A stretch of DNA of 64,000 nt, from the NCBI GenBank assembly GCA_964606285.1, contig CAZSFP010000003.1, positions 20,967-84,966 on the forward strand, written 5' to 3'. Under the pieces are notes generated by a model, which was not told the origin of the DNA, did no database searches, and saw nothing but the letters and a program-made list of their open reading frames with translations. The DNA comes from an uncultured Candidatus Saccharibacteria bacterium (GTDB taxonomy: Bacteria > Patescibacteriota > Minisyncoccia > Phycocordibacterales > UBA9973). How positions within the stretch are numbered: position 1 is the stretch's first letter; every line of letters starts with the position of its first letter. Positions 4,004 through 51,574 of the stretch are shown here, piece after piece. Made by a program: the position numbers and the translations under genes.

Positions 4004-5743
4004 ATGAATTTGGATTTTATCCTTTATACTAAAGGGTATATGGCGACATTCCAAGAAGACGATCAAATCAAAAAACTCGAAGAGCTCCGTGAACAAGAAG
4101 AGGAAGACCTCGTTCGGATTCTCGCTGAAACCCGGTATCATCTCCCCTACGTGAATCTTGCAAGTATTATCATCGACAATGAAGCACTTTCTTATTTGAC
4201 CGAAGCCGAGGCACGGTCACTCGAAGTTGGACCATTCAAAGTATCTGGTAAACATATCTATGTCGGTGTTCGTTCACCAAATCACGAAGGTTTGCCGGCA
4301 CTTCGCGATACACTTATTCGCAAAGGGTTGATTCCAACGTTCTACATGGTCTCACAAAAAAGTTTGAACAAAGTTTGGGAACGGTACACAGAACTTTCTC
4401 ATGCGACAGAATCACGTATCGGTGGTTTCGACATCGAAGGCGATCGTATGAAAGAACTCGGCGAGAAAATTGTCCGTTTTCAAGACGTTCAGAAAAATAT
4501 TTCTGATTGTATTCGTGAAAACAAACCTCACAAGATTTCACAAATTCTCGAAATCATTCTCGCGGGCGGCATATCACTCGATGCATCTGATGTGCACATC
4601 GAACCAGAAGAAACCGATATTCGTATCCGCTATCGTCTCGACGGTGTACTCCAAGACGTCGCGAGTCTCGATATCGGACTCAACCACTTGATCAACGCTC
4701 GACTAAAACTCCTCGCAGGTATGAAGCTCACGAACAGCGCAATGGCACAGGATGGCCGCATCAGTATTTTCCTCGATGACATGGAGATCAGTCTTCGTGT
4801 CTCGACTGTCCCGGGAACATACGGCGAATCCATCGTCATGCGTATTTTGAATCCCAAAAAAATCCGTATTCAACCTGAGGAACTCGGTATTGATCCTGAA
4901 TTATTCAAAATCATCGATAAAGAAATCAGAAAACCAAATGGCATGATCCTCATCACTGGTCCGACAGGATCTGGAAAAACGACGACATTGTATGCATTCT
5001 TGCAGCGCATCTACACACCGGAAGTCAAAGTCATCACCATCGAAGACCCAATCGAATATCACTTGAAGGGCATCACCCAGACACAGACAGAAAAAGAAAA
5101 AGGATATGGATTCCTCCAAGGCTTGCGTGCAGCACTCCGTCAAGACCCTGACATCATCATGGTCGGTGAAATCCGCGATGCCGAAACCGCACAAATCGCT
5201 GTCGAATCTGCACTCACTGGTCACATTGTCTTTTCAACGCTTCACACCAACAATGCTGGTGGTGTCATCCCTCGTATGATCGATCTCGAAGTCAATCCAA
5301 AAATTCTCGTCTCTGCACTTTCGCTCTCTATGGCACAACGTACCGTTCGTCGCCTCTGTCAGCACTGCAAAGTATCATATACACCAACCGAGTACGAAGA
5401 ATCAATATTACGAAATATTTTAAGAATGGCTGATGCAAACAAGAAAGGTATTGAGCGGTACAAACTCACACCTGACATGCCGATCACACTCTACAAACCT
5501 GTCGGCTGTGACCTCTGTCATGGTATCGGATATAAAGGATTGATCGGTATCTTTGAAGCGATTCTCACCGATGAGGCAATCGAAAAAATAATCCCGACAA
5601 ATCCCTCTGAACGTGAAATCAAAAAAGTTGCCAAAGCGCAAGGGATATTTGATATGCGCGAAGACGGCGCGGTAAAAATTCTCTCCGGTATCACATCTTT
5701 TGAAGAAGTTCGAAGTGTCGTGGATCTCGAAGAGGAAATTTAG
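4004..5743 (+). CDS. pilB: Type IV pilus assembly / type II secretion ATPase (PilB/GspE family)
   Basis: Walker A GPTGSGKTTT, conserved VGEIRD, Asp/His boxes and tetracysteine (CQHC...CDLC) typical of GspE/PilB; 579 aa. An alternative start at 4040 (MATFQ..., RBS-like AAAGGG upstream) is possible. Confidence 0.85.
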   Translation: MNLDFILYTKGYMATFQEDDQIKKLEELREQEEEDLVRILAETRYHLPYVNLASIIIDNEALSYLTEAEARSLEVGPFKVSGKHIYVGVRSPNHEGLPALRDTLIRKGLIPTFYMVSQKSLNKVWERYTELSHATESRIGGFDIEGDRMKELGEKIVRFQDVQKNISDCIRENKPHKISQILEIILAGGISLDASDVHIEPEETDIRIRYRLDGVLQDVASLDIGLNHLINARLKLLAGMKLTNSAMAQDGRISIFLDDMEISLRVSTVPGTYGESIVMRILNPKKIRIQPEELGIDPELFKIIDKEIRKPNGMILITGPTGSGKTTTLYAFLQRIYTPEVKVITIEDPIEYHLKGITQTQTEKEKGYGFLQGLRAALRQDPDIIMVGEIRDAETAQIAVESALTGHIVFSTLHTNNAGGVIPRMIDLEVNPKILVSALSLSMAQRTVRRLCQHCKVSYTPTEYEESILRNILRMADANKKGIERYKLTPDMPITLYKPVGCDLCHGIGYKGLIGIFEAILTDEAIEKIIPTNPSEREIKKVAKAQGIFDMREDGAVKILSGITSFEEVRSVVDLEEEI

Positions 5744-5779
5744 ATGAATGTCTAATATCTAAAAAATACAAAAGAAAAA

Positions 5780-5810
5780 CCCTTCACATGACGTGAAGGG
5801 TTTTTCTTTT
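5780..5810 (+). terminator. Intrinsic terminator after pilB
   Basis: cccttcacatgacgtgaaggg hairpin followed by tttttctttt. Confidence 0.6.
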
Positions 5811-6086
5811 GACAACACTTTTAAGTAAAAAACAAAAATCTCTAAACAATCCTTGTCCCAATCAATGACACAAGTAACATATCCTTGAAGGATAGACCCA
5901 GTAATATAAAAATAAACCAGAACGTCCTCCGCACAGATGTAGAGGCAGTGCCTGATTGCTTAGAGATTTTTGTCTTCTCAACCCATTTGTCAAAGCGAAC
6001 TCAACAAGTGTATACTATACCATATCTGTAAAGCTCGAATTACATTATAGCAAAATTTATACATTTGTCAAGCACACCCCTCTTTT

Positions 6087-7058
6087 ATGTCTCATGATTC
6101 ACATCTCGACCTTACACTGCGTCCCAACACATGGGCAGAATACATTGGCCAAGATTCTATCAAAAAGAATCTTCATATTCTCCTGACTGCAGCAAAAGAA
6201 CGCAATCATCCGGCAGAACACATCCTCTTTTATGGTCCACCAGGTCTCGGTAAGACGACACTCGCCCATTTGATCGCCCATGAAACGGGTCGTCAGATCA
6301 AAATCACCTCAGGTCCGGCTATTGAAAAGGTCGGTGATCTCGCATCTATTCTCACGAACCTCTCACCAGGTGATATCGTCTTTATCGATGAGATACATAG
6401 ACTCAACAAAATGATCGAAGAGGTCCTCTATCCTGCGATGGAGTCCGGTGTACTTGATATCATCATCGGCAAAGGTCCATCTGCTCGCACGATTCAGCTC
6501 GAGCTCCCGCCGTTCACACTAATTGCCGCAACAACACGAGTCGCCTTACTCTCATCTCCGCTCCGTTCCCGATTTTCCGGCGGCACGTTTCGTCTCGAAT
6601 TTTATTCTGAAAAAGAAATTGAGCAAATTGTGAAACGAAGTGCAAGCATCCTCGGTATCGGCATCGATGACGAAGCGATCAGTGAGATCGCCAAACGTTC
6701 ACGCTTCACACCTCGCACCGCCAACTATTTCCTCAAGCGTTGCCGTGACTATGCGCAAGTACACAAAAAAGATCTCGACAAGAAAACGGTCTTTCTCGCC
6801 CTCTCACTCCTCGGCATCGATGAACTCGGTCTGTCTGAATCCGACCGCATGATTCTCTCGACCATCATCGAGAAATTTGATGGCGGTCCGGTTGGTCTCA
6901 ACACCATCGCCGCGGCAACCAGCGAAGAAGAAGCAACGATCGAAGAAGTCACGGAACCCTATCTCATCCAACGCGGGTTATTGGAAAGAACTCCTCGAGG
7001 AAGAACCGCTACTCAGAAAGCTTATAAACATTTAGGTTTTGATTTTCCTGAGAAATAA
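6087..7058 (+). CDS. ruvB: Holliday junction branch-migration helicase RuvB
   Basis: GPPGLGKTTLAHLIA Walker A, DEIHRL Walker B, the typical RuvB N-terminus (LRPxxxxEYIGQ) and a winged-helix C-terminus. Confidence 0.9.
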   Translation: MSHDSHLDLTLRPNTWAEYIGQDSIKKNLHILLTAAKERNHPAEHILFYGPPGLGKTTLAHLIAHETGRQIKITSGPAIEKVGDLASILTNLSPGDIVFIDEIHRLNKMIEEVLYPAMESGVLDIIIGKGPSARTIQLELPPFTLIAATTRVALLSSPLRSRFSGGTFRLEFYSEKEIEQIVKRSASILGIGIDDEAISEIAKRSRFTPRTANYFLKRCRDYAQVHKKDLDKKTVFLALSLLGIDELGLSESDRMILSTIIEKFDGGPVGLNTIAAATSEEEATIEEVTEPYLIQRGLLERTPRGRTATQKAYKHLGFDFPEK

Positions 7059-7205
7059 TTTTTAAATTATATTTTCGAGGAGTTCAGTCACGAACGACTT
7101 ACAGTCGCAGTACACCTTTTGGATATTTTGTTTCAAGTCTTCACAAAATATCTCAAAAGGTCTTGCGCCGCAGTCCCGCAAGCGGGTTCCCAATTCTGCG
7201 GCTCA

Positions 7206-7271
7206 CCACGCGGCCGCACTGCCACAAAAAAAGCGTATGAACATCTTGAATTTGAATGGAAAGAAAAATAA
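7206..7271 (+). repeat. Degenerate second copy of the ruvB 3' end (encodes PRGRTATKKAYEHLEFEWKEK* versus the genuine PRGRTATQKAYKHLGFDFPEK*), lying immediately before a strong terminator
   Basis: Manual in-frame translation of 7206-7271: 14 of 21 residues are identical to the ruvB C-terminus. It is preceded by an unusually GC-rich block at ~7160-7220. Confidence 0.6.
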
Positions 7272-7306
7272 AAAAAATCCCTCGTACATGCGAGGGATTT
7301 TACTTT
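7272..7306 (+). terminator. Intrinsic terminator
   Basis: aaaaaaaatccctcgtacatgcgagggatttt: perfect stem ccctcg/cgaggg followed by a T-run. Confidence 0.65.
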
Positions 7307-7894
7307 TTAGCTATGATGCCAAATTTTGTATTCAAGCTTTGACAGCTTGTACGGTGGCGGTATTGTATAGTTTCCTTTTTTGTCTTTTCTCCACGGCAGC
7401 TGTATTTTTACAGTCACATAAATTTGTTTGTGATTTTCAACATACGAACAGTGTCCTTTGTACATGTTTGCCTGATTCTTGTTAACAATTTTCTTGTTCT
7501 GAAACAGAAGGAACAGGTCATACACAAGAAGCTCAAGCAAAGTAACTGGTGAACTTTCATGAGTAATATATGAAGCATTTTTCTGTCTCGTTCTCATTAC
7601 CCTTTCATCTGGATCTTTGAGATATACTTCAAAAGTCTTAACTTTTTTTGCCAACATATCAAAACATTTCTGGAGAGTAATCTCTTTTGGAACAACAATA
7701 ATAATCCATCCGATGGTCGGTTCGCCAAGCTCTTTGAAATCTTCAATTTTTATATCAAGTGAAAACCATTGTTTGTAAAATGAAATCCATTTTTGAATAA
7801 CTTTTGATTTTGATAATCTATTTCTTTTTTGAGAAGTAACCAAATTATCAACATCTTGTAAAAATCTTTCAGAAAATTCATTATCTGCATGCAT
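7307..7894 (-). CDS. Hypothetical protein
   Basis: 195-aa ORF with no recognisable motif. Confidence 0.4.
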   Translation of the reverse strand: MHADNEFSERFLQDVDNLVTSQKRNRLSKSKVIQKWISFYKQWFSLDIKIEDFKELGEPTIGWIIIVVPKEITLQKCFDMLAKKVKTFEVYLKDPDERVMRTRQKNASYITHESSPVTLLELLVYDLFLLFQNKKIVNKNQANMYKGHCSYVENHKQIYVTVKIQLPWRKDKKGNYTIPPPYKLSKLEYKIWHHS

Positions 7895-7998
7895 GTTGTT
7901 TTAGTTTTTTTGTGAATGAACTTTTTACACTGTCAGACAACAAATTTATTTGCGGTCTGAATAATGTGGGCGGAACTAGATTGTCCCGCCCATTGTAT

Positions 7999-8490
7999 TT
8001 AATCTGCAAGTTTTGTTTCAATATAGGTAAATTTCTTTCTTAATTTTACATACCAGTTTTTATCTATATCATCTCCTGCATCTCCCTCACATATGGTTTT
8101 CACCATAAAAATAAAATTTTCTTCGGTTTTCGGCACTACAATAATATTCGTACACCATGCATTCTTTCCACTCACCGCATATTTTACAATCTGGTCCCTT
8201 TCATGTTCCACACTTGTTGTTGTAAACAATATAGCCGGCAACCCATATCCATGTCCTCCTACATGCGCAGTACGTATGTATTCATTATAAAAAGTATTAC
8301 CATTTTCATAAAATAAACTTCCTACAAAAGCAGGCATTTGTTCCAATATTGGTTCTCTTTCTTCACCGGGTATTTGTGCGGGTGCAGTAGTAAACAGTAT
8401 TTCATCGTACCATTCAGGTAATTCTCTTTTTGCTAAAGCTTTAAATTGTTCTAAAACATACTCATGTTTTTGTGAAAATATTATTTTCAT
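7999..8490 (-). CDS. Hypothetical protein
   Basis: 163-aa ORF with no recognisable motif. Confidence 0.45.
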   Translation of the reverse strand: MKIIFSQKHEYVLEQFKALAKRELPEWYDEILFTTAPAQIPGEEREPILEQMPAFVGSLFYENGNTFYNEYIRTAHVGGHGYGLPAILFTTTSVEHERDQIVKYAVSGKNAWCTNIIVVPKTEENFIFMVKTICEGDAGDDIDKNWYVKLRKKFTYIETKLAD

Positions 8491-9158
8491 TTCATGTCTG
8501 TTCAGTATCCCTGTTCCCGGCTTTAGTTTATGAATGAACTTTTTCTCTACAAGATTTCAATCAGAGATTAAAATCTTGATAAAGAAAGTGAGTTGTTTTT
8601 TAGACAACTCACTACTATTTGAGGCCTTTCTTATTTCCTACACCTGGTTGCTCACCGGCAACAGGCATTCTCTCTCGAGAAATTTTTTTCAAATTCAAAA
8701 ATAAGCGGTCATAACCTTTGCTTCCAGCTCACTTGCAGGAAGACTTTCCAGATAATTTTAATTTGAAAAGAACTAATGATTTTTTAGGATTTGATCCTAG
8801 GCTTTTTACCTTTCTCGGTACTTGATACGCCATGGGCATATACAAACTCACTTCATTTGAGTTCGTCTAAGGTGTCGATAGACCTCAAGAATTCGAGAAT
8901 GAAAGACTATGCTTCAAAAACTCCTACGGTGTCCGTAGTATTTCCCTTGCGGGTTTTGCGTCTCCACACATCTTTCGGGGAACGTTCGCTACCTACCGAT
9001 GGTAGTATACTTGTCCAAACTACACAGACTATGCCAAGAGATTTTCGGTTCTCTTGCCACGCGGACAACATAAGCCACTCGTATATCATCTGTATACAAA
9101 CCTTTGTTTGTTTTTATGAAGAACAAACACTCATTCTTTTTTGCCAGAGGCTCGGGTA

Positions 9159-9365
9159 CTATGCTTCACCGAGCTTTGATTGGTCTTTTTCTCTGTCTGC
9201 ATGAAGTTCATATATTGCATACATGGTCGATACTACGAAAATAAATCCGTAACATCCCAGTACTTTTTTGAATGTATCCATCGCATCAGGACGAACACCT
9301 CCAAAACAGTAACTAGCCAGTAACAATGCACAAACCATCAAAGACACTATGGACATTTTCCACAT
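9159..9365 (-). CDS. Small two-helix membrane protein (hypothetical)
   Basis: 68-aa ORF with two hydrophobic stretches. It is the only plausible protein in the 8.5-9.9 kb gap. Confidence 0.3.
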   Translation of the reverse strand: MWKMSIVSLMVCALLLASYCFGGVRPDAMDTFKKVLGCYGFIFVVSTMYAIYELHADREKDQSKLGEA

Positions 9366-10005
9366 GGTTTTTAAAAGTACATTTTTCTACAGCAGCTCGA
9401 ATAATTCAAGTTGCTGATAAAGAGGAGGAGCGTGTTGCCGAAGCAAAGGCACTCCTCCCGAACTTTCCACCATTACTGATGAGGTACTGCAACCACTTGC
9501 AATATGTTTTTACCTGCCATTTTAGTCGGTCAGTAACTCCTCTGATTGTATATCCGTCTGAGCATTGCCCATCGGAGCACAAAAGGAGCCTGCGATCTTG
9601 GGTGTGGAATTCCCAAGCTATCGAAACTTGTCAGAAACGTTTGTTGAAACAAGGAAACCCTGTTTCTTCATTCGTTACCGCTTCATCTCTTACCTGCATG
9701 CCAGATGGTCGACTGGCCCACGTCTTTTCCTTCAAAAGGAATATTCCAGATACCACCAAATGCTTGAGGATAATGATATCTGTAGTATTCCTTTCGAAGT
9801 GTTTCAAAGAACTTTTGAACGAATCAATTTCTTATTCATCGTTCTGCAAACATCATAGCATTAGAAAAGAGATAAGTCAATAGATTTGGCAAGTATTTTT
9901 ATCAGTATATTTTTAAAATATCAAATATTTATTGATTTTTATAGATATTTTATATATTTAACAAAAATATTTGTCATTTTAAGGTATCTATGCTACACTC
10001 TACCC

Positions 10006-10785
10006 ATGCTAGAAATACCCCGAGACATTAAACAATCATTAGGAGATATAGGACTTGATCGCGCGGAGATCCAGGTTTGTGTACTTCTTTTGAAAAAGAA
10101 TTTTTTGAGTATCCAAGAAATAACCAATGAAGTGAAGCTCCCCCGCTCGTCGGTGCAACTTGCCTGTGAGAACCTCCTCAATACCGGTGTCTTGAAAGTA
10201 TCAATAACCGGCAAGCGTAGAAGTTTTTATATAGAAAATGCGCACAGTATCGAACAGCACTTATCACAAAAAGAAAAAGACATTCAATCACAAAAGATTA
10301 CACTCCACAGCATTCTTCCGAAACTCTCAGCTATCCAGGCCATCGCCCAAGATGCTGAACCGATCGAAATAGAAGAACTCTCCGGTGAAGACGGCTTTGT
10401 CGAAACCTTTTATCGTTCACTCAACCAACCAAAGAACTCAGAAGTCTTGCGATTTACCGGAAATCCAGAAACATTTACTGTTGCTCGGGAAAAATTGAAA
10501 CAATACCGCGAACAACGAATGAAAAAGAAAATATACTCAAAAGTAATCCATCCTGAATCATCTCAAAAAGAAGAAGAAGCTCGTGATGCTGTAGGCAAAA
10601 TGCGCGAAGTTCGATTTTTACCGAAAGAACTCTATAATCCAAAAGTACAGATGTCGACATGGCAAGACAATGTCGCAGTGACTGTCTGGGACAAAGGACT
10701 TCATTCGATCATCATCAAAAACAAAGCATTTGCAGACAGCATGAAACAACTCTTCACGATCGCATGGAATCAAGCAAAGAATTAA
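10006..10785 (+). CDS. TrmB-like winged-helix transcriptional regulator
   Basis: The N-terminal wHTH (IGLDRAEIQVCVLLLKKNFLSIQEITNEVKLPRSSVQLACENLLNTGVLKV) matches the TrmB-family pattern. Start was moved to MLEIPRD (10006) because the upstream part of the track ORF is AT-rich promoter-like sequence. Confidence 0.6.
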   Translation: MLEIPRDIKQSLGDIGLDRAEIQVCVLLLKKNFLSIQEITNEVKLPRSSVQLACENLLNTGVLKVSITGKRRSFYIENAHSIEQHLSQKEKDIQSQKITLHSILPKLSAIQAIAQDAEPIEIEELSGEDGFVETFYRSLNQPKNSEVLRFTGNPETFTVAREKLKQYREQRMKKKIYSKVIHPESSQKEEEARDAVGKMREVRFLPKELYNPKVQMSTWQDNVAVTVWDKGLHSIIIKNKAFADSMKQLFTIAWNQAKN

Positions 10786-10841
10786 GGAAATAAAAAAAAT
10801 CCCGCAAAATATGCGGGACTTTTATTAACCTCATGTTGAAG

Positions 10842-17077: not shown

Positions 17078-17989
17078 ATGACCGCTGTCCAAACACTCAA
17101 ACGCCAATTTCTCGAATACCTCGAAATCGAACGAGGTCTCAGTTTGAAGACCATCACCAACTATGACCGTTATCTCACCCGCTTTTTCGATCTTGCAAAA
17201 ATTACGGCTGTGGCTGATATCACAGAAGAAACAATCCGGTCATTTCGCCTGATGCTCAACCGCGCTCCGGGCATGAAAATCCGCGGACAATCTGCGACCA
17301 CACTCAAGAAGAACACACAAAATTATTATCTCATCGCATTGCGTGTCTTTCTGAAATACCTGCGAAAGAAATCCATCACCGCGCTGACACCAGACGCGAT
17401 CGAACTTGCAAAAATCCATGAGCGACACCTCGATCTCATTTCGACAGACGAACTGCAACGTCTCCTCACTGCACCAGACGGCACCGATATCCGATCATAT
17501 CGCGACAAAGCATTGCTCGCCCTCTTTTTCTCAACCGGTCTCCGTCTCTCAGAACTCTGTTCACTCAACCGTGATCTCGATCTGTCGAAAGATGAATTTT
17601 CGATTCGTGGAAAAGGTGAAAAAGTTCGCGTCGTCTTTCTCTCGCCAGCCGCCAAAGATGCCATCAAAACCTATCTCGCAAAACGCAAAGACACTGACGA
17701 ACCACTCTTCACTCAGCTCAGTCACAACAAAAACGAATCTGCACGTCTGACTCCCCGCTCCATCGAACGTATCGTGAAGCAGCACGCGATCAAAGCCGGT
17801 ATTTCAAAAAAGGTCACACCGCACGTCATCCGTCACTCGTTCGCCACCGACCTCCTCTCGAACGGCGCCGATATCCGCTCCGTCCAAATGATGCTCGGCC
17901 ACGCGAACATCGCCACGACACAAGTCTATACGCATATAACAGACAAGCAATTAAGAGACGTTCATAAGAAGTTTCACAGTAATAAATAA
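17078..17989 (+). CDS. xerC: Tyrosine site-specific recombinase XerC/XerD family
   Basis: C-terminal HVIRHSFATDLLSNGADIRSVQMMLGHANIATTQVYTH (R..H..R..Y catalytic box) and an N-terminal SAM-like core-binding domain. Confidence 0.85.
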   Translation: MTAVQTLKRQFLEYLEIERGLSLKTITNYDRYLTRFFDLAKITAVADITEETIRSFRLMLNRAPGMKIRGQSATTLKKNTQNYYLIALRVFLKYLRKKSITALTPDAIELAKIHERHLDLISTDELQRLLTAPDGTDIRSYRDKALLALFFSTGLRLSELCSLNRDLDLSKDEFSIRGKGEKVRVVFLSPAAKDAIKTYLAKRKDTDEPLFTQLSHNKNESARLTPRSIERIVKQHAIKAGISKKVTPHVIRHSFATDLLSNGADIRSVQMMLGHANIATTQVYTHITDKQLRDVHKKFHSNK

Positions 17990-18111
17990 TTCCGCGATGC
18001 CTGCCCGGCACTAAGTGTACTCGCTTTAGTGTCGGGTCCACAAAAAATTCCATAGTCAGAAATAAAAAACCGGTCGCAGTGACCGGTTTTTTTGATCTTT
18101 AAAGAAGACTG

Positions 18112-18921
18112 TTACTTCTTATAAAGTTCTGCAACTTTTCTCGGAGTAAACTTGTGATCTTCATAATATTCTTTATCGAATATCGGAACCTTCTTGAACA
18201 AAGAATACTCTTTGAATTTTTTGACTCGTTTCCTTTCCATAATTTTCTTAACAAATTGAGCAACTTCGATAGGCTGCAACCAGTACTCTGGATTCGCATC
18301 TGTCGCAGTAAATACGAACGGTCTCGTAATTAGTTCATTCGGACACAACACAGATGAAATGTTTATCAATGAAACAATTTCTGTTGCACCATTCTTTTGT
18401 CGATACACGATGCCTTCTTTCAATTTTTCAATTGATTTCCACCATGAAGTATGAGCACTAGGTTTATGTTCATCGGCAAGACCGCCAAACAATACAGCAT
18501 GAAACGGCTTTCTTGTTGCCTTTGCCAGGATTGAACAAAACTGAGTAAACAATATTTTTGTCAGATATAAACAACGATCATCAATACCATCTTTGTCATC
18601 ATCATACTGAAGAATCTTATTTCCTTTGGAATCGATTTCAAAAGGATATAGACCTACCGCATGGATATAAGAAATCTGATCAAATTTTTCACTGGCTATT
18701 GTTTCAGTAAATGCTAGTGCCATACACGCAGCGGATGTTTCTGAAGAAATAGAACAAATCAATGTTCTCACTGGAAGTTTTCCATCAACACAAAATTCTT
18801 TGAAGTCTTTTGCTTTTCTACTGATACCATACACGATTGTATCTTTTTGTGAGGCGAATAATCCAAGACATGCGGAACCAATAGCGCCTGTAACACCATG
18901 GATAATAACGAGTTTTTTCAT
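18112..18921 (-). CDS. NAD(P)-binding Rossmann-fold protein (SDR/NmrA-like)
   Basis: VIIHGVTGAIGSA glycine-rich dinucleotide-binding motif at the N-terminus. Confidence 0.45.
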   Translation of the reverse strand: MKKLVIIHGVTGAIGSACLGLFASQKDTIVYGISRKAKDFKEFCVDGKLPVRTLICSISSETSAACMALAFTETIASEKFDQISYIHAVGLYPFEIDSKGNKILQYDDDKDGIDDRCLYLTKILFTQFCSILAKATRKPFHAVLFGGLADEHKPSAHTSWWKSIEKLKEGIVYRQKNGATEIVSLINISSVLCPNELITRPFVFTATDANPEYWLQPIEVAQFVKKIMERKRVKKFKEYSLFKKVPIFDKEYYEDHKFTPRKVAELYKK

Positions 18922-19058
18922 TTTTTTAATTATTAAGGTTAATTATTTTTTAAATTAAAACATAATTTATTACTTTTGTCTAAAATATTACGTTTTATAT
19001 AAGAAAAGTAAAAAAATATTTTACTTTTAGTATAATATCTGGTATATATAAGGTAGAT

Positions 19059-19898
19059 ATGAATATCCTGAATCCCGCATCCATAGAAGAACAAGTCGCA
19101 AATCTTCTACAAAAGAATTCATTGACCGGAGCACGGTTATTGGAAGAGATAAAAAAGGACCGACCCAAAACGACGAAACAAGCCGTGTATGCGGCACTTC
19201 GCGTACTTAGGAGCGGTGAGATTGTCGTAAAGCACAAGAAACTCTTTTCCCTCTCGAGTGTTTGGATCATGAAAATGGCAGAATTTTTCCAACTGGCAAA
19301 GCATTTCTATACAAAGACTGCCACCGCAGATGAAGGGTTCCTCAGTCTCGAAGACGGCGATCGAGTATCGTATGCGTTCAAGAACCCGAACGTTGCAGAT
19401 ATATTTTGGGGACATGCATTTGATATCTTGTCTGAGATCACCCCTCTCAATGAACCGGTATATCTCTACAATCCGCATGAGTGGTTTTTACTCGCCCGTC
19501 ATGACAGTGAGAAGGCAATCTTTGATCGAATCACGAAAACCGGCAAACAAGTCTTGGTCATTGCCGGCGGAAATACTATTCTTGATAAAAACTTAACAAA
19601 AGAATTTGATGGAAAAATTTCGCAGTATTATCCGACTGACGAAATGATTTTTGAAAAGAGAAATTATTATCTCAATATCTTTGATGATTTCATTATTGAA
19701 GCATTGATAGATGAGGATGTCGCAAAAAAGATTGATGCTTTCTATCAGACAACCTCGACATGGAACAAAGAATCAGAGATTGTCTTGAAAAGAATTATTG
19801 AGACTGAAGGAAAAAACAAACTGACCATTTCACGGAACAATAAACGTGCCGAGAAACTGAAAAAGATATTCAAAAAATATTTCTATATTCAAAAATAA
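19059..19898 (+). CDS. Winged-helix DNA-binding protein, paralog of 37175..38038
   Basis: N-terminal wHTH (KQAVYAALRVLRSGEIVVKHKKLFSL) and a shared C-terminal tail ISRNNKRAEKLKKIFKKYF with the 37175 ORF. Confidence 0.45.
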   Translation: MNILNPASIEEQVANLLQKNSLTGARLLEEIKKDRPKTTKQAVYAALRVLRSGEIVVKHKKLFSLSSVWIMKMAEFFQLAKHFYTKTATADEGFLSLEDGDRVSYAFKNPNVADIFWGHAFDILSEITPLNEPVYLYNPHEWFLLARHDSEKAIFDRITKTGKQVLVIAGGNTILDKNLTKEFDGKISQYYPTDEMIFEKRNYYLNIFDDFIIEALIDEDVAKKIDAFYQTTSTWNKESEIVLKRIIETEGKNKLTISRNNKRAEKLKKIFKKYFYIQK

Positions 19899-19933
19899 AA
19901 AACCGCTTGTGGTGGGGCGGTTTTTTGTAGATC

Positions 19934-21082
19934 TTAGCCTACGTTGTCATGCAAAGCAGAAAAATGTTCTGAATACCTAAAATCTTCAGTTACTTCCTTG
20001 AGTATCGGTAAAAAATCAGGAGTAATGGTTTCTTCAATCATCGTTCCCTCGCGTTCAAGCTTAAGATAGTTCTTGGTAGTATCATTGTATTCATCGAGTG
20101 TGAATACTTGCTCATTCCAAATAAAGCTTGTGCGTGTTTTTTCAACTTTACGTCTCTCAGTATCTATGCGGAGCAATAACTGATTGTAAGTCTGCAGGTT
20201 TATGAGTTTTTCTGTTTCAATCCTTCGCTGTGGATCTGCAGTTCTTTTCTTTTTTGTATGAAAGAAAAATATTTCACCATTTTCTGTTATTTTCATTCGC
20301 ACCCGCTCTTCATCCCATTGTGGTGATGGACGAAGATACGTTTGAACAATTTTAGCAGTATAAGTTGCAATTTTTTTGTCAGCAAAAACCGTTTTCTGAA
20401 ACTTTACTTTATCAACTATCCATTTCCGTTCATTTTCTATAGGAGAAGGCACCCCAAGTGCTCCAAATACCGCGGTGACTTGTTGACGAATCTTTTTCTC
20501 AAACGATTTTGGGGCCCCGTCAGGTAAACGGTTACCAATAATTCCATAATTCTTTGCTCCGCTGTTTGATTCTTGGAGCCTTTGGTCACGCATGATGGCT
20601 TGTTTTGGTGTTTCTGGTCGATGGATATTATTTTCATTCGTATAAAATTCTGCTGCGCCATTTGCCGCTGTAACCAAGTGTGTTGTCACATCGTACCGGT
20701 TTTCAAGAATTTGATATTTTGAAAGCTTATAAAAAGCCAATAAGTTCTCAAACTCTTTTGGATCATCCACATAAGCAAGCCCATCAAGAAGTCCGCGATC
20801 AAACGTGATAAGTGTTGGTTTATTGGTTCTTTTTGTAAGAAGGGTCGCAGCGTCAGTGTAAAAGTCTTCATGTTTGAGCTGTAAATTCAAAATATTTTTC
20901 TGTAAATCTCTATCACGCTCTATACCAGATGCAAATACCATCGTAGCTGCTTCAGGACAAGCAAGAACATTGAAACCAAGGCTTTGACCATAATCAACGA
21001 TACGAGCCTGACCAGTTGATTTACCAGAGCAAGGACCTCCGCCAGAATTGTGTTTGAAAATCATTTTTTCTCTTGTGTTCAT
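19934..21082 (-). CDS. P-loop NTPase/kinase-like domain fused to a C-terminal CYTH-like (triphosphate tunnel) domain
   Basis: GGGPCSGKST Walker A near the N-terminus; the C-terminal half begins IENERKWIVDKVKF, resembling the EIERKFLV start of CYTH domains, with later acidic/basic strands. Confidence 0.4.
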   Translation of the reverse strand: MNTREKMIFKHNSGGGPCSGKSTGQARIVDYGQSLGFNVLACPEAATMVFASGIERDRDLQKNILNLQLKHEDFYTDAATLLTKRTNKPTLITFDRGLLDGLAYVDDPKEFENLLAFYKLSKYQILENRYDVTTHLVTAANGAAEFYTNENNIHRPETPKQAIMRDQRLQESNSGAKNYGIIGNRLPDGAPKSFEKKIRQQVTAVFGALGVPSPIENERKWIVDKVKFQKTVFADKKIATYTAKIVQTYLRPSPQWDEERVRMKITENGEIFFFHTKKKRTADPQRRIETEKLINLQTYNQLLLRIDTERRKVEKTRTSFIWNEQVFTLDEYNDTTKNYLKLEREGTMIEETITPDFLPILKEVTEDFRYSEHFSALHDNVG

Positions 21083-30898: not shown

Positions 30899-30990
30899 AT
30901 ATAAAACTATTATACACCATGCTTCTTGTGAAGTTTCTCAATTTCAGCATCATCCCCACTTCACTTGTCAGTTTCGCGGGGCAAGCCCTC

Positions 30991-32496
30991 TTATTTTCTT
31001 ATTCCATGTTTCGCATGGAGCTTAATAATTTCTTCTTCGTCCAACTGTTCCTTTGTCGTCTTTGCTTTCTCCCCTAGTGCTCGTAATTCTTTATCAGGTA
31101 ATGTTTCAAGTTCAATAACTCGAGCACTGAGGGTTTCAATAGTATTCTTTTCTGGATTTTCTAATACTTCTTCGAGGAGTGCGTTCAAAATCCAACCCAT
31201 GCGGGGACCAGGTTTCATATTCATATCCTGCATCAGATAGTTTCCATTTACTTTTAATTGTTTCACTGAGATCGGATCACGGAGACATTCTTCGATCATC
31301 GCATGATACTTACGGAGACGGTACGGTGCTTCTTTTTTCTTCATCCCTACCCTGTCGCATTCACGAACCTGCATTAATGTCCAAATATTTTCAACTCCAA
31401 CATTGGCAATCATTCGACGAACCGCTGACAAAGTAATTTGTTCAGTATCTGAGAAAAACATATGATAGCGGACAAGTTTCACAACCAGATCGGTATCAAC
31501 TTTCGAAAATTTGAGTCGATCCATGATTTTCTGCACCATTCGTGCACCAACAACTTCGTGTCCATAGAAGGTATATTCTTTCTTTTGTCCCGGTCGGCGT
31601 GTGCGAGGTTTACCAATATCATGAAACAAAGCGGCTAGTTTCACATGAAACGGATATCCTTTGTCGGCGGCGTGCTGACAAGCTTGAACCAAGTGAGTAA
31701 AGACATCATATATATGTGCACCACCTTGTTCACAGCCGATCCCTTCTTGGAGCTCGGGAATCATATATTGAAGGAGACCAGATTTTTCCAAGAGTCCGAT
31801 ACCAGTCATAGGATTCGGCGAATTTACTATTTTCACGAATTCATCACGAATACGCTCCGCTGAGATGGTTTTAAGGAGATGAGTATTGGTATTTATAGCA
31901 TGAAACGTTTCATGTGAAACAACAAAGCCTAATTGGACAGAAAAACGGATAGCCCGGAGCATTCGGAGTGCGTCTTCTTCAAAACGACATTGTGGATCCC
32001 CTACTGTTTTAAGGATTTTGTCCTTTATGTCGTTTTGACCACCATACATGTCGATGAGATGTCCTTTTGAATTCAGGGCCATTGCATTGACTGTAAAGTC
32101 ACGTCGCCTGAGGTCATCTTCAATGTTTGTACTAAATTGCACGGTATCCGGATGACGATTGTCACTATACTTCCCTTCTATACGGTATGGAGTAACCTCA
32201 ACGATATTATTAGCTTCTGGCGACTGGCGACTGGCATCTAGCTCATTCTTATTCTCAAACACCACAGCGACGGTACCGAATTTATTCTCATAGACTGTCT
32301 TTTCAAACAAGCTGATAATCTGTTCCGGAGTCGCATTTGTCGTCACATCCCAATCTTTTGGTACTTTTCCCAATATCAAATCTCGAACACACCCACCGAC
32401 AAGGTAAGCTTCAAATCCTCCATTTTCAAGAGTTTTTGTTACACGTGAAACATAATCAGGGATTAGATTCAGGTTTATAGATTGTAGTTCTTGTTT
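30991..32496 (-). CDS. cca: CCA-adding tRNA nucleotidyltransferase with HD domain
   Basis: LVGGCVRDLILGKVPKDWDVTT (pol-beta nucleotidyltransferase head), RRDFTVNAMA and an HD motif (FHDIGKP). Start set at MKQELQS because the track's longer ORF overlaps the tRNA. Confidence 0.85.
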   Translation of the reverse strand, partial: KQELQSINLNLIPDYVSRVTKTLENGGFEAYLVGGCVRDLILGKVPKDWDVTTNATPEQIISLFEKTVYENKFGTVAVVFENKNELDASRQSPEANNIVEVTPYRIEGKYSDNRHPDTVQFSTNIEDDLRRRDFTVNAMALNSKGHLIDMYGGQNDIKDKILKTVGDPQCRFEEDALRMLRAIRFSVQLGFVVSHETFHAINTNTHLLKTISAERIRDEFVKIVNSPNPMTGIGLLEKSGLLQYMIPELQEGIGCEQGGAHIYDVFTHLVQACQHAADKGYPFHVKLAALFHDIGKPRTRRPGQKKEYTFYGHEVVGARMVQKIMDRLKFSKVDTDLVVKLVRYHMFFSDTEQITLSAVRRMIANVGVENIWTLMQVRECDRVGMKKKEAPYRLRKYHAMIEECLRDPISVKQLKVNGNYLMQDMNMKPGPRMGWILNALLEEVLENPEKNTIETLSARVIELETLPDKELRALGEKAKTTKEQLDEEEIIKLHAKHGIRK

Positions 32497-32512
32497 CATA
32501 TAGAAACAGTTG

Positions 32513-32583
32513 TGCGGGTAGGGAGAATCGAACTCCCGTCTCATCCTTGGCAAGGACGTGTTCTACCACTAAACCATACCCGC
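32513..32583 (-). tRNA. tRNA-Gly(GCC), 71 nt, 3' CCA not encoded
   Basis: Manual fold: acceptor GCGGGTA/TACCCGC, T-arm GGGAG-TTCGATT-CTCCC, anticodon loop TTGCCAA; discriminator A is followed by CA.. Confidence 0.85.
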
Positions 32584-33713: not shown

Positions 33714-35063
33714 ATGTTTGATACAAAACAATTGTGGGATAAAACTTTGGAGTATTTACAACTAGAAGTCTCAAAGGCTAATTTCACGACATGGTTGAAA
33801 AATACTCATATAACAAAGGAAGAGGGAGGGATAGTCTACGTCGGTGTACCAAATGAATTTGTGAAGGAGTGGCTCATCACAAAATACAATAAAATCATCA
33901 CAAAAACCCTCATTGATCTCTCTGACCAGATTCGTGGTGTTGAATATGTCATCACAAAACTTGAATCGAAACCTAAAGATCAAATCTTGAGTGATAAACT
34001 CTTTAATATAAAGGAACTTCCACTTCAGGATCTCTATAACATCAATAAAGATGATAATTTGAACCCCCGATATACATTTGAAACGTTTATCGTCGGTACA
34101 TTCAATGAGTTGGCATATGCAGCAGGGAAATCTATCGTTGCAAAGCCGGGAATTTCTTATAATCCCTTCTTTGTCTATGGTGGTACCGGCCTCGGCAAGA
34201 CTCATCTCCTTCAAGCTATGGGAAATGAAGTCAAAAAGAACTTTCCAGATAAAAAAGTCCATTATATTACCTTGGAAAAGTTTGCAACTGATCTTGTTAA
34301 TTCATTTCAGACCAATAAAGCCAACTCTTTCAAAGAAAAATACCGAAAATATGACATGTTGATCATTGATGATATTCAATTTATAGGCAAAATGGAGAGA
34401 ACCCAAGAAGAACTCTTCCACACATTCAATACATTCTTCCAAAATAACAAAGCAATCATATTTTCATCTGACAAGCACCCAAACCATATTCCAGGACTCG
34501 AAGATCGTCTCCGAACACGCTTTGGACAGGGAATGATCGTTGATATTACTGAACCAGACTATGAATCCCGTCTTGCTATCCTCCAGAGAAAGATCACAGA
34601 GAACAATATTCACCTCAATACCGACGTTGTCAGCTATATTGCAGATGTCGTCGAAGGAAGTATTCGAGAACTTGAAGGTGCCCTCAATACCATCCTCTGT
34701 CACATTCAGCTCAAACAGCGTCAAATCAACCTCCAGGAAACGAAACTTCTCCTAAAGAACAGTATTAAACCAAAGAAAACCATACCTATAGAAGAAGTGG
34801 TTAATATCATCACTCAATTCTATAACCTTGAAAAAGATGCTATTTACGAGAAGACTCGACGGAAAGAAATTGTTAAAGCCCGACAAATCACCATGTTTCT
34901 CCTTCGTGAAGACTTCAGTATCTCGTATCCGATGATTGGTCAGCGTCTCGGCGGCAAAGATCACACAACTGTCATTCACTCCCATATGAAGATCAAGAAT
35001 GATGTGAAAACAAATCCAGCAATCAAAGAAGAAATAGAGCAGATTCGGATGATGTTCAAATGA
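33714..35063 (+). CDS. dnaA: Chromosomal replication initiator DnaA
   Basis: GGTGLGKTHLLQAMGNE Walker A, IIDDIQFI, sensor motifs and the C-terminal DNA-binding domain (RQITMFLLRE...GGKDHTTVIHS). Confidence 0.95.
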   Translation: MFDTKQLWDKTLEYLQLEVSKANFTTWLKNTHITKEEGGIVYVGVPNEFVKEWLITKYNKIITKTLIDLSDQIRGVEYVITKLESKPKDQILSDKLFNIKELPLQDLYNINKDDNLNPRYTFETFIVGTFNELAYAAGKSIVAKPGISYNPFFVYGGTGLGKTHLLQAMGNEVKKNFPDKKVHYITLEKFATDLVNSFQTNKANSFKEKYRKYDMLIIDDIQFIGKMERTQEELFHTFNTFFQNNKAIIFSSDKHPNHIPGLEDRLRTRFGQGMIVDITEPDYESRLAILQRKITENNIHLNTDVVSYIADVVEGSIRELEGALNTILCHIQLKQRQINLQETKLLLKNSIKPKKTIPIEEVVNIITQFYNLEKDAIYEKTRRKEIVKARQITMFLLREDFSISYPMIGQRLGGKDHTTVIHSHMKIKNDVKTNPAIKEEIEQIRMMFK

Positions 35064-35294
35064 TGGGGAAAAGATGTGAGTAAACTGGGAATAAAAAGTG
35101 GATTATACACAGAGGTTATCAAAAGATAGAAAAAGTTATCAAACGTTATCCGGAAATTAAGAGAAAAATAAACAGAGAGTGGGGAAAATAAAGATTGAAA
35201 TATATAGATATAGTGACCTTATCCACATATTAACAGCCCTAATAGTAATAATAAGTATATATATAATAAATAGATATATACTGTAGATAACATT
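35064..35294 (+). promoter_or_regulatory. dnaA-dnaN intergenic region with a DnaA box (ccttatccacat ~35216-35227), weaker boxes and an AT-rich unwinding-element-like tract. Likely the second part of a bipartite origin
   Basis: The motif and a >85% AT tract at 35225-35294 are seen directly. Confidence 0.5.
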
Positions 35295-36389
35295 ATGATA
35301 CTCGAATGCTCAACTGAAAAACTCAAACAAGCTCTCGGATATGCAGAACGCATGACTGGGAAGAACTTGTCTTTACCGATTCTTGGATCATTGTTATTTA
35401 TTGCATCAGGAAAGACACTTCGAATCCGAGCAACCAATCTTTCTCTTGGTATTGAAATAGAAGTTCCAGCAAAGATCGAACAAGAAGGGGTTATTGCTGT
35501 GAAGGCAGATACGGTCAGTGCAGCAGTTCATTCGTTTGTTTCAAATGATATGGTTACTCTCTCGCTCGACAATAGTAATCTTCTTCTGAAGACAAAACAG
35601 AATAAAGTGCTCGTGAAAGCATTCTCACATGAAGACTTCCCAACGCTTCCAGTGGTTGCAGGTCAGGAAATATACCTTTCAGCAAAAAAACTCATTGACG
35701 GGCTCAAATCAGTCGTTTACAGCGCATCTGTGTCCGATATCAAACCGGAGCTTGCGAGTGTGTATGTCTATCCATCCGATGGGCAGATCTTTTTTGTTGC
35801 AACAGATGCATTTCGATTGGCAGAAAAGAAAGTAAAGGGTGGGGAAGGGGAATGGAAAGGAATATTGATCCCGGCAAAGAATGCACTTGAAGTCATAAAA
35901 CTGTTTCAAGACTATGGTGATGATATAAAAATAATCATCAGTGACAATCAGCTCTCATTTACAACGAGTATGATGTATGTGACATCACGACTCGTCGCAA
36001 ATCCGTTTCCTGACTATACCCAGATTCTTCCAAAGGAACCAAAAACACAGGTGACTGTCCTTAAGCAGGATCTCGTAAATGCATTGAAATTGACTACTGT
36101 TTTTTCTGATAAGTTCAATCAAGTAAATATCAGTGTTGTTGGTGCTGAGAAAAAAATGGCGATCGGTGCCAAGAACGCGGATACAGGGGAACAGATTACA
36201 AAGGTTGATGCGGCAATTTCTGGGGATGATATAGAAATGAATGTGAACTATCGCCATATGATGGATTGTTTCCAGTCGATTGGACAGGATAGTATCACAC
36301 TGTCATTTACGGATACGAACCGACCAATAGTAATTCGTGGGGTGTCTGATCAATCATTCCTTTATTTAATAATGCCAATGAACAGATAA
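35295..36389 (+). CDS. dnaN: DNA polymerase III beta sliding clamp
   Basis: 364 aa, three-domain length, typical N-terminus (MILECSTEKLKQAL...), position immediately after dnaA. Confidence 0.85.
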   Translation: MILECSTEKLKQALGYAERMTGKNLSLPILGSLLFIASGKTLRIRATNLSLGIEIEVPAKIEQEGVIAVKADTVSAAVHSFVSNDMVTLSLDNSNLLLKTKQNKVLVKAFSHEDFPTLPVVAGQEIYLSAKKLIDGLKSVVYSASVSDIKPELASVYVYPSDGQIFFVATDAFRLAEKKVKGGEGEWKGILIPAKNALEVIKLFQDYGDDIKIIISDNQLSFTTSMMYVTSRLVANPFPDYTQILPKEPKTQVTVLKQDLVNALKLTTVFSDKFNQVNISVVGAEKKMAIGAKNADTGEQITKVDAAISGDDIEMNVNYRHMMDCFQSIGQDSITLSFTDTNRPIVIRGVSDQSFLYLIMPMNR

Positions 36390-46574: not shown

Positions 46575-47003
46575 TTATTTATCTAATACATCCAAACTCC
46601 AGGCGATGTCGCGAATGCGGGATTCGGAGAATTTCTTTTCATGCGTTTGGGCTTTTTGGATTTCCTCGACTTTTGGTTGTTCCTTGAGGGATTTGTTTTT
46701 TGGTTGTTTCCAGATAAAGAGTTTTCTTTGGAAAATATAGGTGAACCACGCTTCAACGATAAAAATAAACGGTTTTTCATTGACGCGATAGAACGTCAGG
46801 GCGATGGCAAAGGCAATGAGACCGAGCGCGAGGGGAATACCGAGAAATCCCGGCAGGATCCGATAGAGAATGTACGCGCCGCCTGCGCCGCCTGCGAGAT
46901 AGACGAATTGTCGAAACGTGAATGGTCCGAAAATCTTGTCTTCGACGTCGATGAATTGAGGAACGCGAAATTGCATATGAATAGTATAGCAGGTGAAAAA
47001 CAC
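46575..47003 (-). CDS. Small two-TM membrane protein, divergent from the VirB4 operon (possibly VirB3-like)
   Basis: 142 aa with hydrophobic hairpin GGAGGAYILYRILPGFLGIPLALGLIAFAIALTF. The assignment is by context only. Confidence 0.35.
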   Translation of the reverse strand: MFFTCYTIHMQFRVPQFIDVEDKIFGPFTFRQFVYLAGGAGGAYILYRILPGFLGIPLALGLIAFAIALTFYRVNEKPFIFIVEAWFTYIFQRKLFIWKQPKNKSLKEQPKVEEIQKAQTHEKKFSESRIRDIAWSLDVLDK

Positions 47004-47010
47004 GATACCA

Positions 47011-47090
47011 ACTAGTACAGTAGTACGAGTACGTAGTATGTAGTATAAATTCCTAATACTTTGTACTATGTACTCATACTAAGTACTATT
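47011..47090 (+). repeat. GTAC-rich conserved intergenic element, copy 1 (upstream of the VirB4 operon)
   Basis: tagtacgagtacgtagtat ... atactttgtactatgtactcatactaagtact; aligns with 50484-50550 and partly with 33080-33150. Confidence 0.6.
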
Positions 47091-47151
47091 TTTTTTGACT
47101 ATCCACTACAACCTATAACCTATTACACTATTTTTCTGTTATACTTTTTGC

Positions 47152-47793: not shown

Positions 47794-47794
47794 T

Positions 47795-49885: not shown

Positions 49886-49893
49886 TTATTCAT

Positions 49894-50478: not shown

Positions 50479-50483
50479 AGGAC

Positions 50484-50550
50484 TTAGTACGAGTACATAG
50501 TATTTTTAGTTTCATACTAAATACTTTGTACTTGTACTTCATACTCATTT
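50484..50550 (+). repeat. GTAC-rich conserved intergenic element, copy 2 (upstream of the 50596-60036 operon)
   Basis: tagtacgagtacatagtat ... atactttgtacttgtacttcatactcatt. Confidence 0.6.
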
Positions 50551-50595
50551 TCTGTACACAGTAACTCCTTCTTTTTATTTTCTTGGCATTATATA

Positions 50596-51573: not shown

Positions 51574-51574
51574 T

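Follow-up and report, generated by a model that had tools for sequence, protein, structure and literature searches.

A ruvB 3′ end displaced by imported, hairpin-bearing DNA and retained as an untranslated ghost in a Candidate Phyla Radiation genome

Why is the ruvB gene of a bacterium with a streamlined genome followed, 147 nt after its stop codon, by a second version of its own 3′ end, and which of the two ends belongs to the gene? The locus lies in a 64,000-nt stretch of DNA from an uncultured bacterium deposited as Candidatus Saccharibacteria (GCA_964606285.1, contig CAZSFP010000003.1, positions 20,967 to 84,966); this whole stretch is referred to below as the window, and positions are counted from its first letter. 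A homologue search returned more than 8000 RuvB homologues, the closest of which come from Paceibacteria/Nomurabacteria metagenome-assembled genomes, and the host is a member of this group within the Candidate Phyla Radiation (CPR). The original prediction, made from the window alone, regarded the translated end as authentic and the second copy as a degenerate ghost duplicate, left by site-specific integration into the gene end or by gene-conversion remodeling. Our analysis shows that the 3′ end of ruvB was displaced by imported DNA and that the native end is kept downstream as a ghost. The features of the locus are as follows.

6087–7058, plus strand: ruvB coding sequence as now translated, from the open reading frame (ORF) list (323 aa; Pfam RuvB_N, AAA, AAA_lid_4, and WHD_RuvB)
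6975–7058, plus strand: imported replacement 3′ end of ruvB, the last ~27 codons and the stop codon (left boundary between 6963 and 6978)
6988–6998, plus strand: first arm of an inverted repeat, GAACTCCTCGA (GAACT|CCTCGA), which spans 6992|6993, the point matching the ghost start
7059–7205, plus strand: imported non-coding spacer of 147 nt, absent from L003, L004, and L005
7075–7085, plus strand: second arm of the inverted repeat, TCGAGGAGTTC, found by repeat search
7114–7161, plus strand: long AT-rich hairpin with a 17–18 bp stem
7164–7205, plus strand: GC-rich hairpin (outer stem GCCGCAG/CUGCGGC, inner CCCG-CAAG-CGGG), whose 3′ foot abuts the ghost
7206–7271, plus strand: ghost, the native last 21 codons of ruvB and their stop codon, now in the untranslated 3′ region (3′-UTR)
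7257–7300, plus strand: left copy of an imperfect direct repeat (last ruvB codons and terminator), with the right copy at 10786–10822
7274–7301, no strand assigned: intrinsic bidirectional terminator 3′ of the ghost, from the terminator scan

The ghost translates to PRGRTATKKAYEHLEFEWKEK followed by a stop codon, and the translated RuvB tail (6993–7058) reads PRGRTATQKAYKHLGFDFPEK, likewise followed by a stop codon; the two peptides are identical at 15 of 21 residues. Their nucleotide sequences agree at 43 of 66 positions, and because this identity is distributed over first, second, and third codon positions as 17, 19, and 7 of 22, the similarity resides at the protein level. Ten of the 16 codons that are conserved between the tails (stop included) have been replaced synonymously, and the four- or six-fold degenerate codons that specify the same residue are spelled differently in all nine cases. 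We then compared each ORF tail with its own downstream DNA in the window and 85 related loci (~1700 ORFs), using reversed peptides as controls. The ruvB pair scored 84; none of the controls scored 50 or more, five reached 40, and one reached 45. The homology of the second copy to the RuvB C-terminus, as claimed in the original prediction, is thus upheld, and the codon patterns argue that the two tails evolved separately as coding DNA and reflect neither a recent duplication nor chance. The terminator predicted just behind the second copy was recovered as well: it is the only intrinsic terminator within 6800–7500 and follows immediately after the ghost stop codon. The structure is not an assembler artefact, because two independent Logan assemblies are 100% identical to the window across it (over 5150–8126 and 5150–7538), each spanning both copies.

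To decide which end is native, we turned to the relatives of the host. The closest RuvB proteins (93–95% identical, P0004–P0007; also P0017 and P0021) terminate in ...KKAYEHLGFEWK[D/E]K (GFEWK[D/E]K), and the ghost differs from the tail of these closest relatives by a single Gly-to-Glu substitution, at a site occupied by Gly in 116 of the 120 homologues listed. In L003, L004, and L005, the loci of the closest RuvB relatives, the stop codon leads directly to the terminator, with no spacer and no second tail. The original prediction had named an identical arrangement in related genomes, with no insert polymorphism, as the outcome that would speak against it; the alignment of related ruvB 3′ regions shows an empty site in these three loci instead. 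The ghost aligns with all three ruvB tails from exactly 7206, the ghost plus terminator (7206–7301) aligns with the tail plus terminator of L005, and 55 of 60 nt are identical between the ghost and L004. When the first 42 nt of each copy were compared with 68 Paceibacteria ruvB tails, the ghost found its best match in the nearest relative, L004 (38/42, 90%), and the translated tail in more distant species (33/42, 79%). Moreover, the translated tail is only 62–73% identical to the three relatives, versus 85–87% for the whole gene.

The foreign character extends upstream of the duplicated part. There, the window reads GGG TTA TTG GAA AGA versus GGN CTC CTC GAA CGA in all three relatives, and the 18 nt preceding the duplicated part contain five to six synonymous differences at sites that are invariant in the three. 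The left junction lies in homologous sequence, with its boundary (6963–6978) within codons conserved in all relatives. Given the ghost-type ends of the closest relatives, the alignment from 7206, and the foreign codons upstream, these comparisons therefore show that the imported part comprises the translated tail, a few preceding codons (from about 6963–6978), and the 147-nt spacer, and that the ghost and the terminator are native. The polarity given in the original prediction is thereby reversed, and the second copy, as the better match to orthologous ruvB tails, is not degenerate. A tandem duplication followed by divergence is ruled out, because the ghost and not the translated tail matches the orthologues and because divergence in the translated tail greatly exceeds that in the remainder of the gene.

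Two contigs from other samples bear on the age and spread of the imported patch. L090, from another sample, differs from the window at 48 positions in the first 876 nt of ruvB (5.5%) and at none of the 167 nt from 6963 to 7129 (P about 8e-5 under uniform divergence); L091 shows the same pattern, and the last mismatch of both is at 6962. Since both contigs are free of mismatches from 6963 despite their diverged ruvB, the patch is younger than the divergence of these strains and has moved between them. The xer counterpart of the patch, described below, is missing from a sample in which the ruvB patch is present (L089), so that the two patches segregate independently. L090 and L091 end inside the AT-rich hairpin, at 7129 and 7125, respectively, which suggests sequence heterogeneity or a larger variant beyond that point in those populations. 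For the strains with contigs ending in the spacer, a search for the ghost side returned the original contig only.

The spacer itself is AT-rich at first and then GC-rich, as originally described, reaching 70% G+C at 7160–7225 against 40% for the window; besides this GC-rich part, the window has only one other non-coding GC-rich block. The inverted repeat at the junction consists of 11-nt arms that are 100% complementary and lie 76 nt apart, and it forms a 14-bp helix in RNA. It is the only case among 1714 ORF tails that is not just a terminator lying across the stop codon, and the reversed control yielded none. The RNA of the whole spacer folds at −46.3 kcal/mol (z = −6.0 against shuffles), and the structure of the 3′-UTR gives z = −6 to −6.8. 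Folding of the GC-rich block, a check suggested in the original prediction, gave a divided answer: alone, the block folds no better than shuffles (z = −0.7), and the strong structure belongs to the spacer as a whole. Rfam contained no match to the insert above chance; the gathering score was reached by tRNAs only, and the sub-threshold hits around the insert were driven by the terminator. None of 68 related ruvB 3′ flanks resembles the spacer, and a donor sought in 80 genomes, in the viral collection, and in the metagenome scan was not found. An origin of the GC block from upstream ruvB sequence was considered and rejected, as the alignment is no better than with shuffles.

The same layout recurs elsewhere in the window, at two further protein genes and, as the original prediction had pointed out, at tRNA-Gly(TCC).

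17078–17989, plus strand: xer tyrosine recombinase gene (layout 17915–18098), with the tail VHKKFHSNK and stop codon at 17960–17989
17990–18035: xer insert of 46 nt, containing a hairpin
18036–18065: native xer ghost, VHKKFHSQK and stop codon, then a terminator
30991–32553, minus strand: cca, the CCA-adding enzyme gene (layout 30905–31040), ending in ...EEEIIKLHAKHGIRK and a stop codon
Downstream of cca, minus strand: insert of 37 nt with a GC-rich hairpin, then the ghost ...DDAEIEKLHKKHGV (...EIEKLHKKHGV) and stop codon, just before the start of the next gene (30898)
62962–63033, minus strand: tRNA-Gly(TCC), followed by an insert of about 145 nt, an exact 18-nt copy of the tRNA 3′ end with CCA, and a terminator

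At xer, a 97%-identical homologue (P0121) ends in the ghost version, and in its DNA (L089) the tail leads to the terminator, the insert being absent. The foreign tract begins near 17915; over its 75 nt it has 18 mismatches, versus about 10% for the gene, and 10 differences fall in the 45 nt upstream of the duplicated segment. At tRNA-Gly(TCC), the new and old ends are identical over 18 nt, and the second copy lies 147 nt 3′ of the gene. Two further cases were found in related loci. In L052 (~17640–17770, minus strand), dnaA ends in ...IGEIEQIRSQL and a stop codon, followed by a 90-nt insert that ends in a GC-rich hairpin and by the ghost INQIEQIRSQL with its stop codon. In L057 (267–494), a 134-nt insert separates tRNA-Lys(TTT) from a ghost that reproduces 18 nt of the tRNA 3′ end exactly. 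The 64-kb window thus holds three protein genes and one tRNA with this layout, versus dnaA in L052 and tRNA-Lys in L057 in ~1.4 Mb of Paceibacteria loci from 80 other species, and all targets are highly conserved housekeeping genes or tRNAs.

The inserts share details of architecture. An inverted repeat like that at ruvB is present at tRNA-Gly (11 nt, 91% complementary, 66 nt between arms) and at tRNA-Lys of L057 (12 nt, 100% complementary, 73 nt between arms); in each of the two, the ghost begins in the T-loop, at a position covered by the first arm. In the three long inserts (ruvB, tRNA-Gly, and tRNA-Lys of L057; 134–147 nt), the 3′ foot of a hairpin, read from the sequences, lies 0–3 nt from the ghost. 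The short inserts (xer, cca, and dnaA of L052) measure 37–90 nt. In L100, an insert homologous to the tRNA-Gly insert of the window precedes two additional, degenerate ghosts of the tRNA 3′ end; of the three units, two terminate in CTCGTGAC.

Several observations concern the tRNA-Gly insert in its own right. It belongs to a small family that is not in Rfam, with members in the window (62795–62961, minus strand), L100 (1238–1560), and L071 (973–1072 and 5467–5563). The conserved blocks run AATCGAAAGAYGSAGGC ... GCCGAGTYGGGGTCG ... hairpin ... GTGAC, and the hairpins are variable. Together with its ghost, the insert forms a closed Y-shaped fold, with an outer stem ending in ...CCGCACCA. The two copies in L071 stand alone and have a different first stem (CTCAATTGC/GCAATTGAG), and the tRNA unit of L100 is inverted relative to mscL.

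How did the foreign end arrive? The results above show that a foreign segment of ~230 bp (about 6963/6975 to 7205) entered ruvB. On its left side, the segment merges with the gene in highly conserved codons through a gene-conversion-like tract; it then supplies a functional replacement, diverged at synonymous sites, for at least the last 22 codons and the stop codon, and adds 147 nt of strongly structured non-coding DNA that ends abruptly at 7205|7206, at the foot of the GC-rich hairpin. The native last 21 codons, their stop codon, and the terminator have been moved downstream, where their only remaining roles are those of 3′-UTR and transcription terminator. Insertion into an essential and conserved tail is tolerated because RuvB stays intact. 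Beyond this, we propose that the inserted unit is a small, cargo-less, target-matched cassette and not a random piece of a neighbor's chromosome: the sequence across the insertion point is present in it a second time, in inverted orientation and so placed that the loop of the resulting stem would contain the replacement gene end, and its other end is a hairpin. Such a cassette was probably made by hairpin- or single-strand-dependent recombination acting in trans, and may then have spread between related strains through ordinary homologous recombination anchored in ruvB.

This mechanism, a recent 3′-end displacement caused by a small, cargo-less, target-matched, and hairpin-bearing cassette, is our preferred but still tentative explanation, and we rate its chance as approaching an even one without quite reaching it. 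It would account for the junction-spanning inverted repeat, which recurs at other loci, and for a right end formed by a hairpin; it would also explain why the tRNA junctions lie in the T-loop, why units with a conserved right end accreted serially at tRNA-Gly in L100, why one lineage shows a burst of cases, and why a co-converted tract is found on the left. Several results weigh against it. No second copy of the spacer, for which the original prediction had suggested a search, occurs in the window or in 80 related loci, so that mobility as a family is not shown; a scan of the viral collection gave no hits for the GC block of the spacer, and in a single scan of Joint Genome Institute (JGI) metagenomes with this block, all matches were due to chance and lay in coding DNA of high G+C content. 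A common sequence family for the inserts at ruvB and tRNA-Gly was also considered and was rejected for lack of significant similarity; the motif GCCGAGTYGGGGTCG...GTGAC of the tRNA-Gly insert is absent from the ruvB insert. No junction-spanning inverted repeat was found in the short inserts at xer (46 nt), cca (37 nt), and dnaA of L052. In the insert and next to it, domain searches detected neither a recombinase or transposase nor a reverse transcriptase or homing nuclease, the housekeeping Xer being the sole such enzyme in the window, and the ends of the patch lack the significant complementarity expected of a miniature inverted-repeat transposable element (MITE) or an insertion sequence (P = 0.18 for ruvB and 0.35 for xer). 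Finally, an interior stretch of xer (17348–17482) has 29 mismatches to L089 in 135 nt and is flanked by mismatch-free stretches; plain import of diverged DNA into this lineage is therefore frequent and could explain the left junction with no special element.

A bolder extension is that the ruvB, tRNA-Gly, and tRNA-Lys inserts represent an undescribed class of cargo-less mini-cassettes, each with a "programmable" first stem (a copy of the target and its antisense) and a terminal hairpin, mobilized in trans by a host or distant enzyme that acts on folded single strands, and accumulating serially as in L100. We offer it as a speculation that is unlikely to hold.

The most serious alternative dispenses with a mobile element. 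In homology-facilitated illegitimate recombination during natural transformation, a linear fragment from a distant member of the Paceibacteria, carrying a ruvB end and its 3′ flank, would have anchored inside ruvB, and its far end would have joined the recipient illegitimately at a Pro codon (7206), upstream of the equivalent point, so that the native tail was retained. A far join of this kind is usually made at a short, GC-rich stretch of microhomology shared by donor and recipient. Such an event would place the left junction in conserved coding sequence and a foreign tract upstream of the duplication, as observed, and it agrees with the mosaic patches of ~100–150 nt and ~20% divergence elsewhere in the same genes, with targets that are all highly conserved genes or tRNAs and hence good homology anchors, and with the lack of an enzyme encoded in cis and of an identical core at the junctions. 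The same process has been proposed for 3′-end displacement in type VI secretion system (T6SS) effectors and Rhs proteins (PMC5361080). However, it does not predict the inverted copy of 11 nt at the junction, which is unique among 1714 tails, nor its recurrence with the same spacing at two tRNAs; neither does it predict a hairpin foot at every right junction, the start of both tRNA ghosts in the T-loop, or the repeated accretion with the same CTCGTGAC end in L100. A fragment of chromosomal 3′ flank is also at odds with the 0 of 68 related flanks that resemble the spacer. Homologous recombination is, moreover, reported to outnumber the illegitimate process by orders of magnitude (PMC5361080), yet four cases lie within 64 kb. 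We therefore regard this alternative as possible but doubtful.

A decayed integrative island is a weaker candidate, and we consider it improbable. Here, a tyrosine-integrase element that targets the ruvB 3′ end, with the replacement end in its attP, would have integrated and later lost its body by deletion, leaving attL, ~150 bp of P′/P arms, and attR. The att sites of tRNA-targeting integrases run from the T-loop to the 3′ end, as do the tRNA ghosts here, and the total sizes of 150–215 nt are within the range of a complete attP. In addition, the 3.5-kb island described below sits between repeats of tail end plus terminator at this gene end, and the overall layout is shared with islands that rebuild the gene they enter, for example those at dusA (PMC4482086). 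Against this stands the absence of an identical crossover core. Taking 7 nt or more as the typical core length, we found identical runs of no more than 2 nt within the 24 nt that follow the junction and of no more than 6 nt overall (AAATAA, at the stop codon), and no second att-like direct repeat of at least 7 nt. An integrase would leave native sequence upstream of the crossover, whereas foreign sequence precedes the duplicated segment at both ruvB and xer. No integrase remnant is present, the only Phage_integrase match in the 64-kb window being the housekeeping Xer (17078–17989). Random deletion would leave remnants of very variable and often kilobase size, whereas the long inserts all measure 134–147 nt and the three short ones 37–90 nt, and no full-length element was found at ruvB in 80 species. 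The general reading in the original prediction is supported, in that the locus bears the footprint of DNA inserted into a gene 3′ end along with a replacement end, or of gene-conversion remodeling; classical site-specific integration is not supported, because there is no identical core, integrase, or cargo and because foreign-looking synonymous changes reach at least 15 nt upstream of the duplicated part.

The locus was also compared with other known element classes. The patch has no short target-site duplication of the kind left by MITEs or insertion sequences. The junctions GCTCA|CCACG, GTCGG|GTCCA, and GTGAC|CGATT lack the GTT core of attC sites. A diversity-generating retroelement is not indicated, as the substitutions are of all types and fall at synonymous sites, and no reverse transcriptase is encoded in the window. 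In common with C-terminal displacement, the new 3′ end is translated and the former one is kept downstream as an orphan; a toxin tip and an immunity gene are absent, both tails being the conserved winged-helix end of RuvB, and the insert contains no ORF. Two further candidates were tried and rejected. For a viral or plasmid attP as the source, the matches to the tRNA-Gly 3′ end proved to be complete tRNA genes in phage tRNA arrays, and the new ruvB tail had no matches. RNA-guided homing, with the hairpin and ghost as guide, fits the synonymous recoding at ruvB but is contradicted by the tRNA-Gly ends, which are identical over 18 nt; domain searches found no TnpB-, IscB-, or Cas-like protein.

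A functional second copy, acting as an alternative C-terminus reached by read-through, as a small protein, or as a selected regulatory 3′-UTR RNA, is very improbable. What invites the idea is that the spacer comprises exactly 49 codons with no stop in the ruvB frame, so that 7059–7271 is open in frame 0 and runs in phase into the ghost; read-through of the TAA at 7056–7058 would add 70 residues ending in a second RuvB tail. The ghost has also suffered no frameshift and has kept its stop codon, and the 3′-UTR is strongly structured, as given above. The in-frame spacer is, however, probably due to chance, because the inserts at xer and cca are not in frame. That the ghost is still intact is accounted for by how young the event is, and its Gly-to-Glu change falls at the position that is otherwise nearly always Gly. 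Read-through would yield a protein with two copies of the tail. Within 6800–7500, the sole promoter-like site is at 7339–7366, so that none precedes the ghost, and no ribosome-binding site was seen by eye before the internal TTG ORF (7119–7271).

An assembly or binning chimera of two strain variants of the ruvB end, an idea prompted by the metagenomic origin of this CPR genome and by the two contigs from other samples that stop in the spacer, can be dismissed with near certainty in view of the two concordant Logan assemblies, of a 147-nt spacer that neither variant would contain, and of the unique spacers at xer, cca, and tRNA-Gly, which a collapsed assembly bubble would not produce.

The ruvB end has been hit more than once. 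The segment of 3.5 kb at 7301–10785 is specific to the window, and 7043–10788 has no counterpart in L003 or L005; it is bounded by the imperfect direct repeat listed above, and the terminator in the right copy (10790–10822) is the orthologue of the L005 terminator. This arrangement represents a second, larger, nested displacement at the same gene end. The island contains four or five ORFs with no assigned function; apart from a TrmB-like helix-turn-helix (HTH) domain in one of them, its proteins gave no match in Pfam, PHROG, or NCBIfam. A comparable segment of ~1.9 kb (18099–19935), also specific to the window, lies directly after the terminator of the xer ghost. It holds ORFs at 18112–18921 (minus strand) and 19059–19898 (plus strand) with no family hits, and is followed by a second terminator and then by the sequence that follows the terminator in L089. 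Because of these two segments, at the ruvB end and after the xer ghost, we conclude that gene 3′ ends and their terminators are recurrent entry points for new DNA in this lineage.

Three observations concern the wider neighborhood. A MITE of ~119 bp with GC-rich terminal inverted repeats of ~22 bp (TCCCGTTAGAGGCCGCGGTCGC ... GCGACCTGCCTCTAACGGGA) occurs in related loci (L098 110–228, L045 ~18500–18615, L030 ~4110–4250, and L057 ~1411–1433). In three genomes, it sits exactly at a start codon, and because its 5-bp duplication includes the ATG (mscL ATGGA, dnaA ATGAA, and a pilB-like gene ATGAC), the gene start is regenerated. The others concern 33714–36389 and 46575–53695 of the window. The window lies near the replication origin, since it contains dnaA and dnaN and since DnaA-box-like TTATCCACA motifs occur nearby in related loci. 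It also carries a type-IV-secretion-like cluster, with a PrgI-family protein, a TraG-type P-loop protein, and a type IV secretion system (T4SS) pilin/SLT protein.

If the proposed mechanism is correct, displacement of gene ends would not be confined to toxin loci or to large islands borne by integrases: essential housekeeping genes and tRNAs of streamlined CPR genomes would be remodeled as well, by insertions that measure from a few dozen to ~150 nt and do not alter protein function. Phylogeny and strain typing would be affected, since conserved marker genes in these genomes could have xenologous 3′ ends. In the untranslated ghosts, the locus keeps a record of which allele is ancestral and how recent the event was, and the junction inverted repeat together with the terminal hairpin would offer a testable handle on a possibly new recombination route in organisms that are still hard to culture.

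Among known systems, the closest likeness is to the C-terminal displacement of Rhs, contact-dependent inhibition (CDI), and T6SS proteins. There too, an arriving 3′ end takes over translation, the old end is kept downstream as an untranslated orphan, and orphans stack over successive events, as they do here at tRNA-Gly in L100 and twice at ruvB. For Rhs and T6SS effectors, homologous anchoring in the constant 5′ part combined with an illegitimate or unknown distal join has been proposed (PMC5361080). Those systems exchange a different toxin tip with its immunity gene and are selected for diversification, whereas the ends exchanged here are equivalent housekeeping tails with no cargo, tRNAs are among the targets, and the inserts measure 37–147 nt. 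Islands at gene ends, for example at the 5′ end of dusA, supply a substitute segment, so that the gene stays functional and the native segment is found at the far junction (PMC4482086). As in these and in islands at tRNA and tmRNA 3′ ends, a replacement end is supplied here, and the tRNA duplications run from the T-loop to the 3′ end; unlike them, the present inserts have no integrase, cargo, or identical att core, and foreign sequence extends beyond the duplicated part.

Two further groups offer partial parallels. In the CTX-phage attP(+), integron attC sites, and the ends of IS200/IS605 elements, a folded strand presents the recombination site in a stem. The likeness is one of architecture only, in that the inverted target copy can form a stem at the junction and the other end is a hairpin foot; the inserts lack dif-like sites, RYYYAAC/GTTRRRY boxes, conserved tetranucleotide cleavage sites, and an HUH or IntI gene. 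Mobile endonuclease elements of fungal mitochondria, such as that in Allomyces atp6, carry a duplicated C-terminal coding segment along with a homing-endonuclease ORF. They show gene, foreign C-terminal segment, insert, and native remnant in the same order as at ruvB, with a co-converted flank, and differ in that the ruvB insert contains no ORF. What sets the present loci apart from both displacement loci and islands is that essential genes and tRNAs are hit, that the end supplied is an equivalent one, that neither cargo nor recombinase accompanies it, and that the insert carries a stem mimicking its target.

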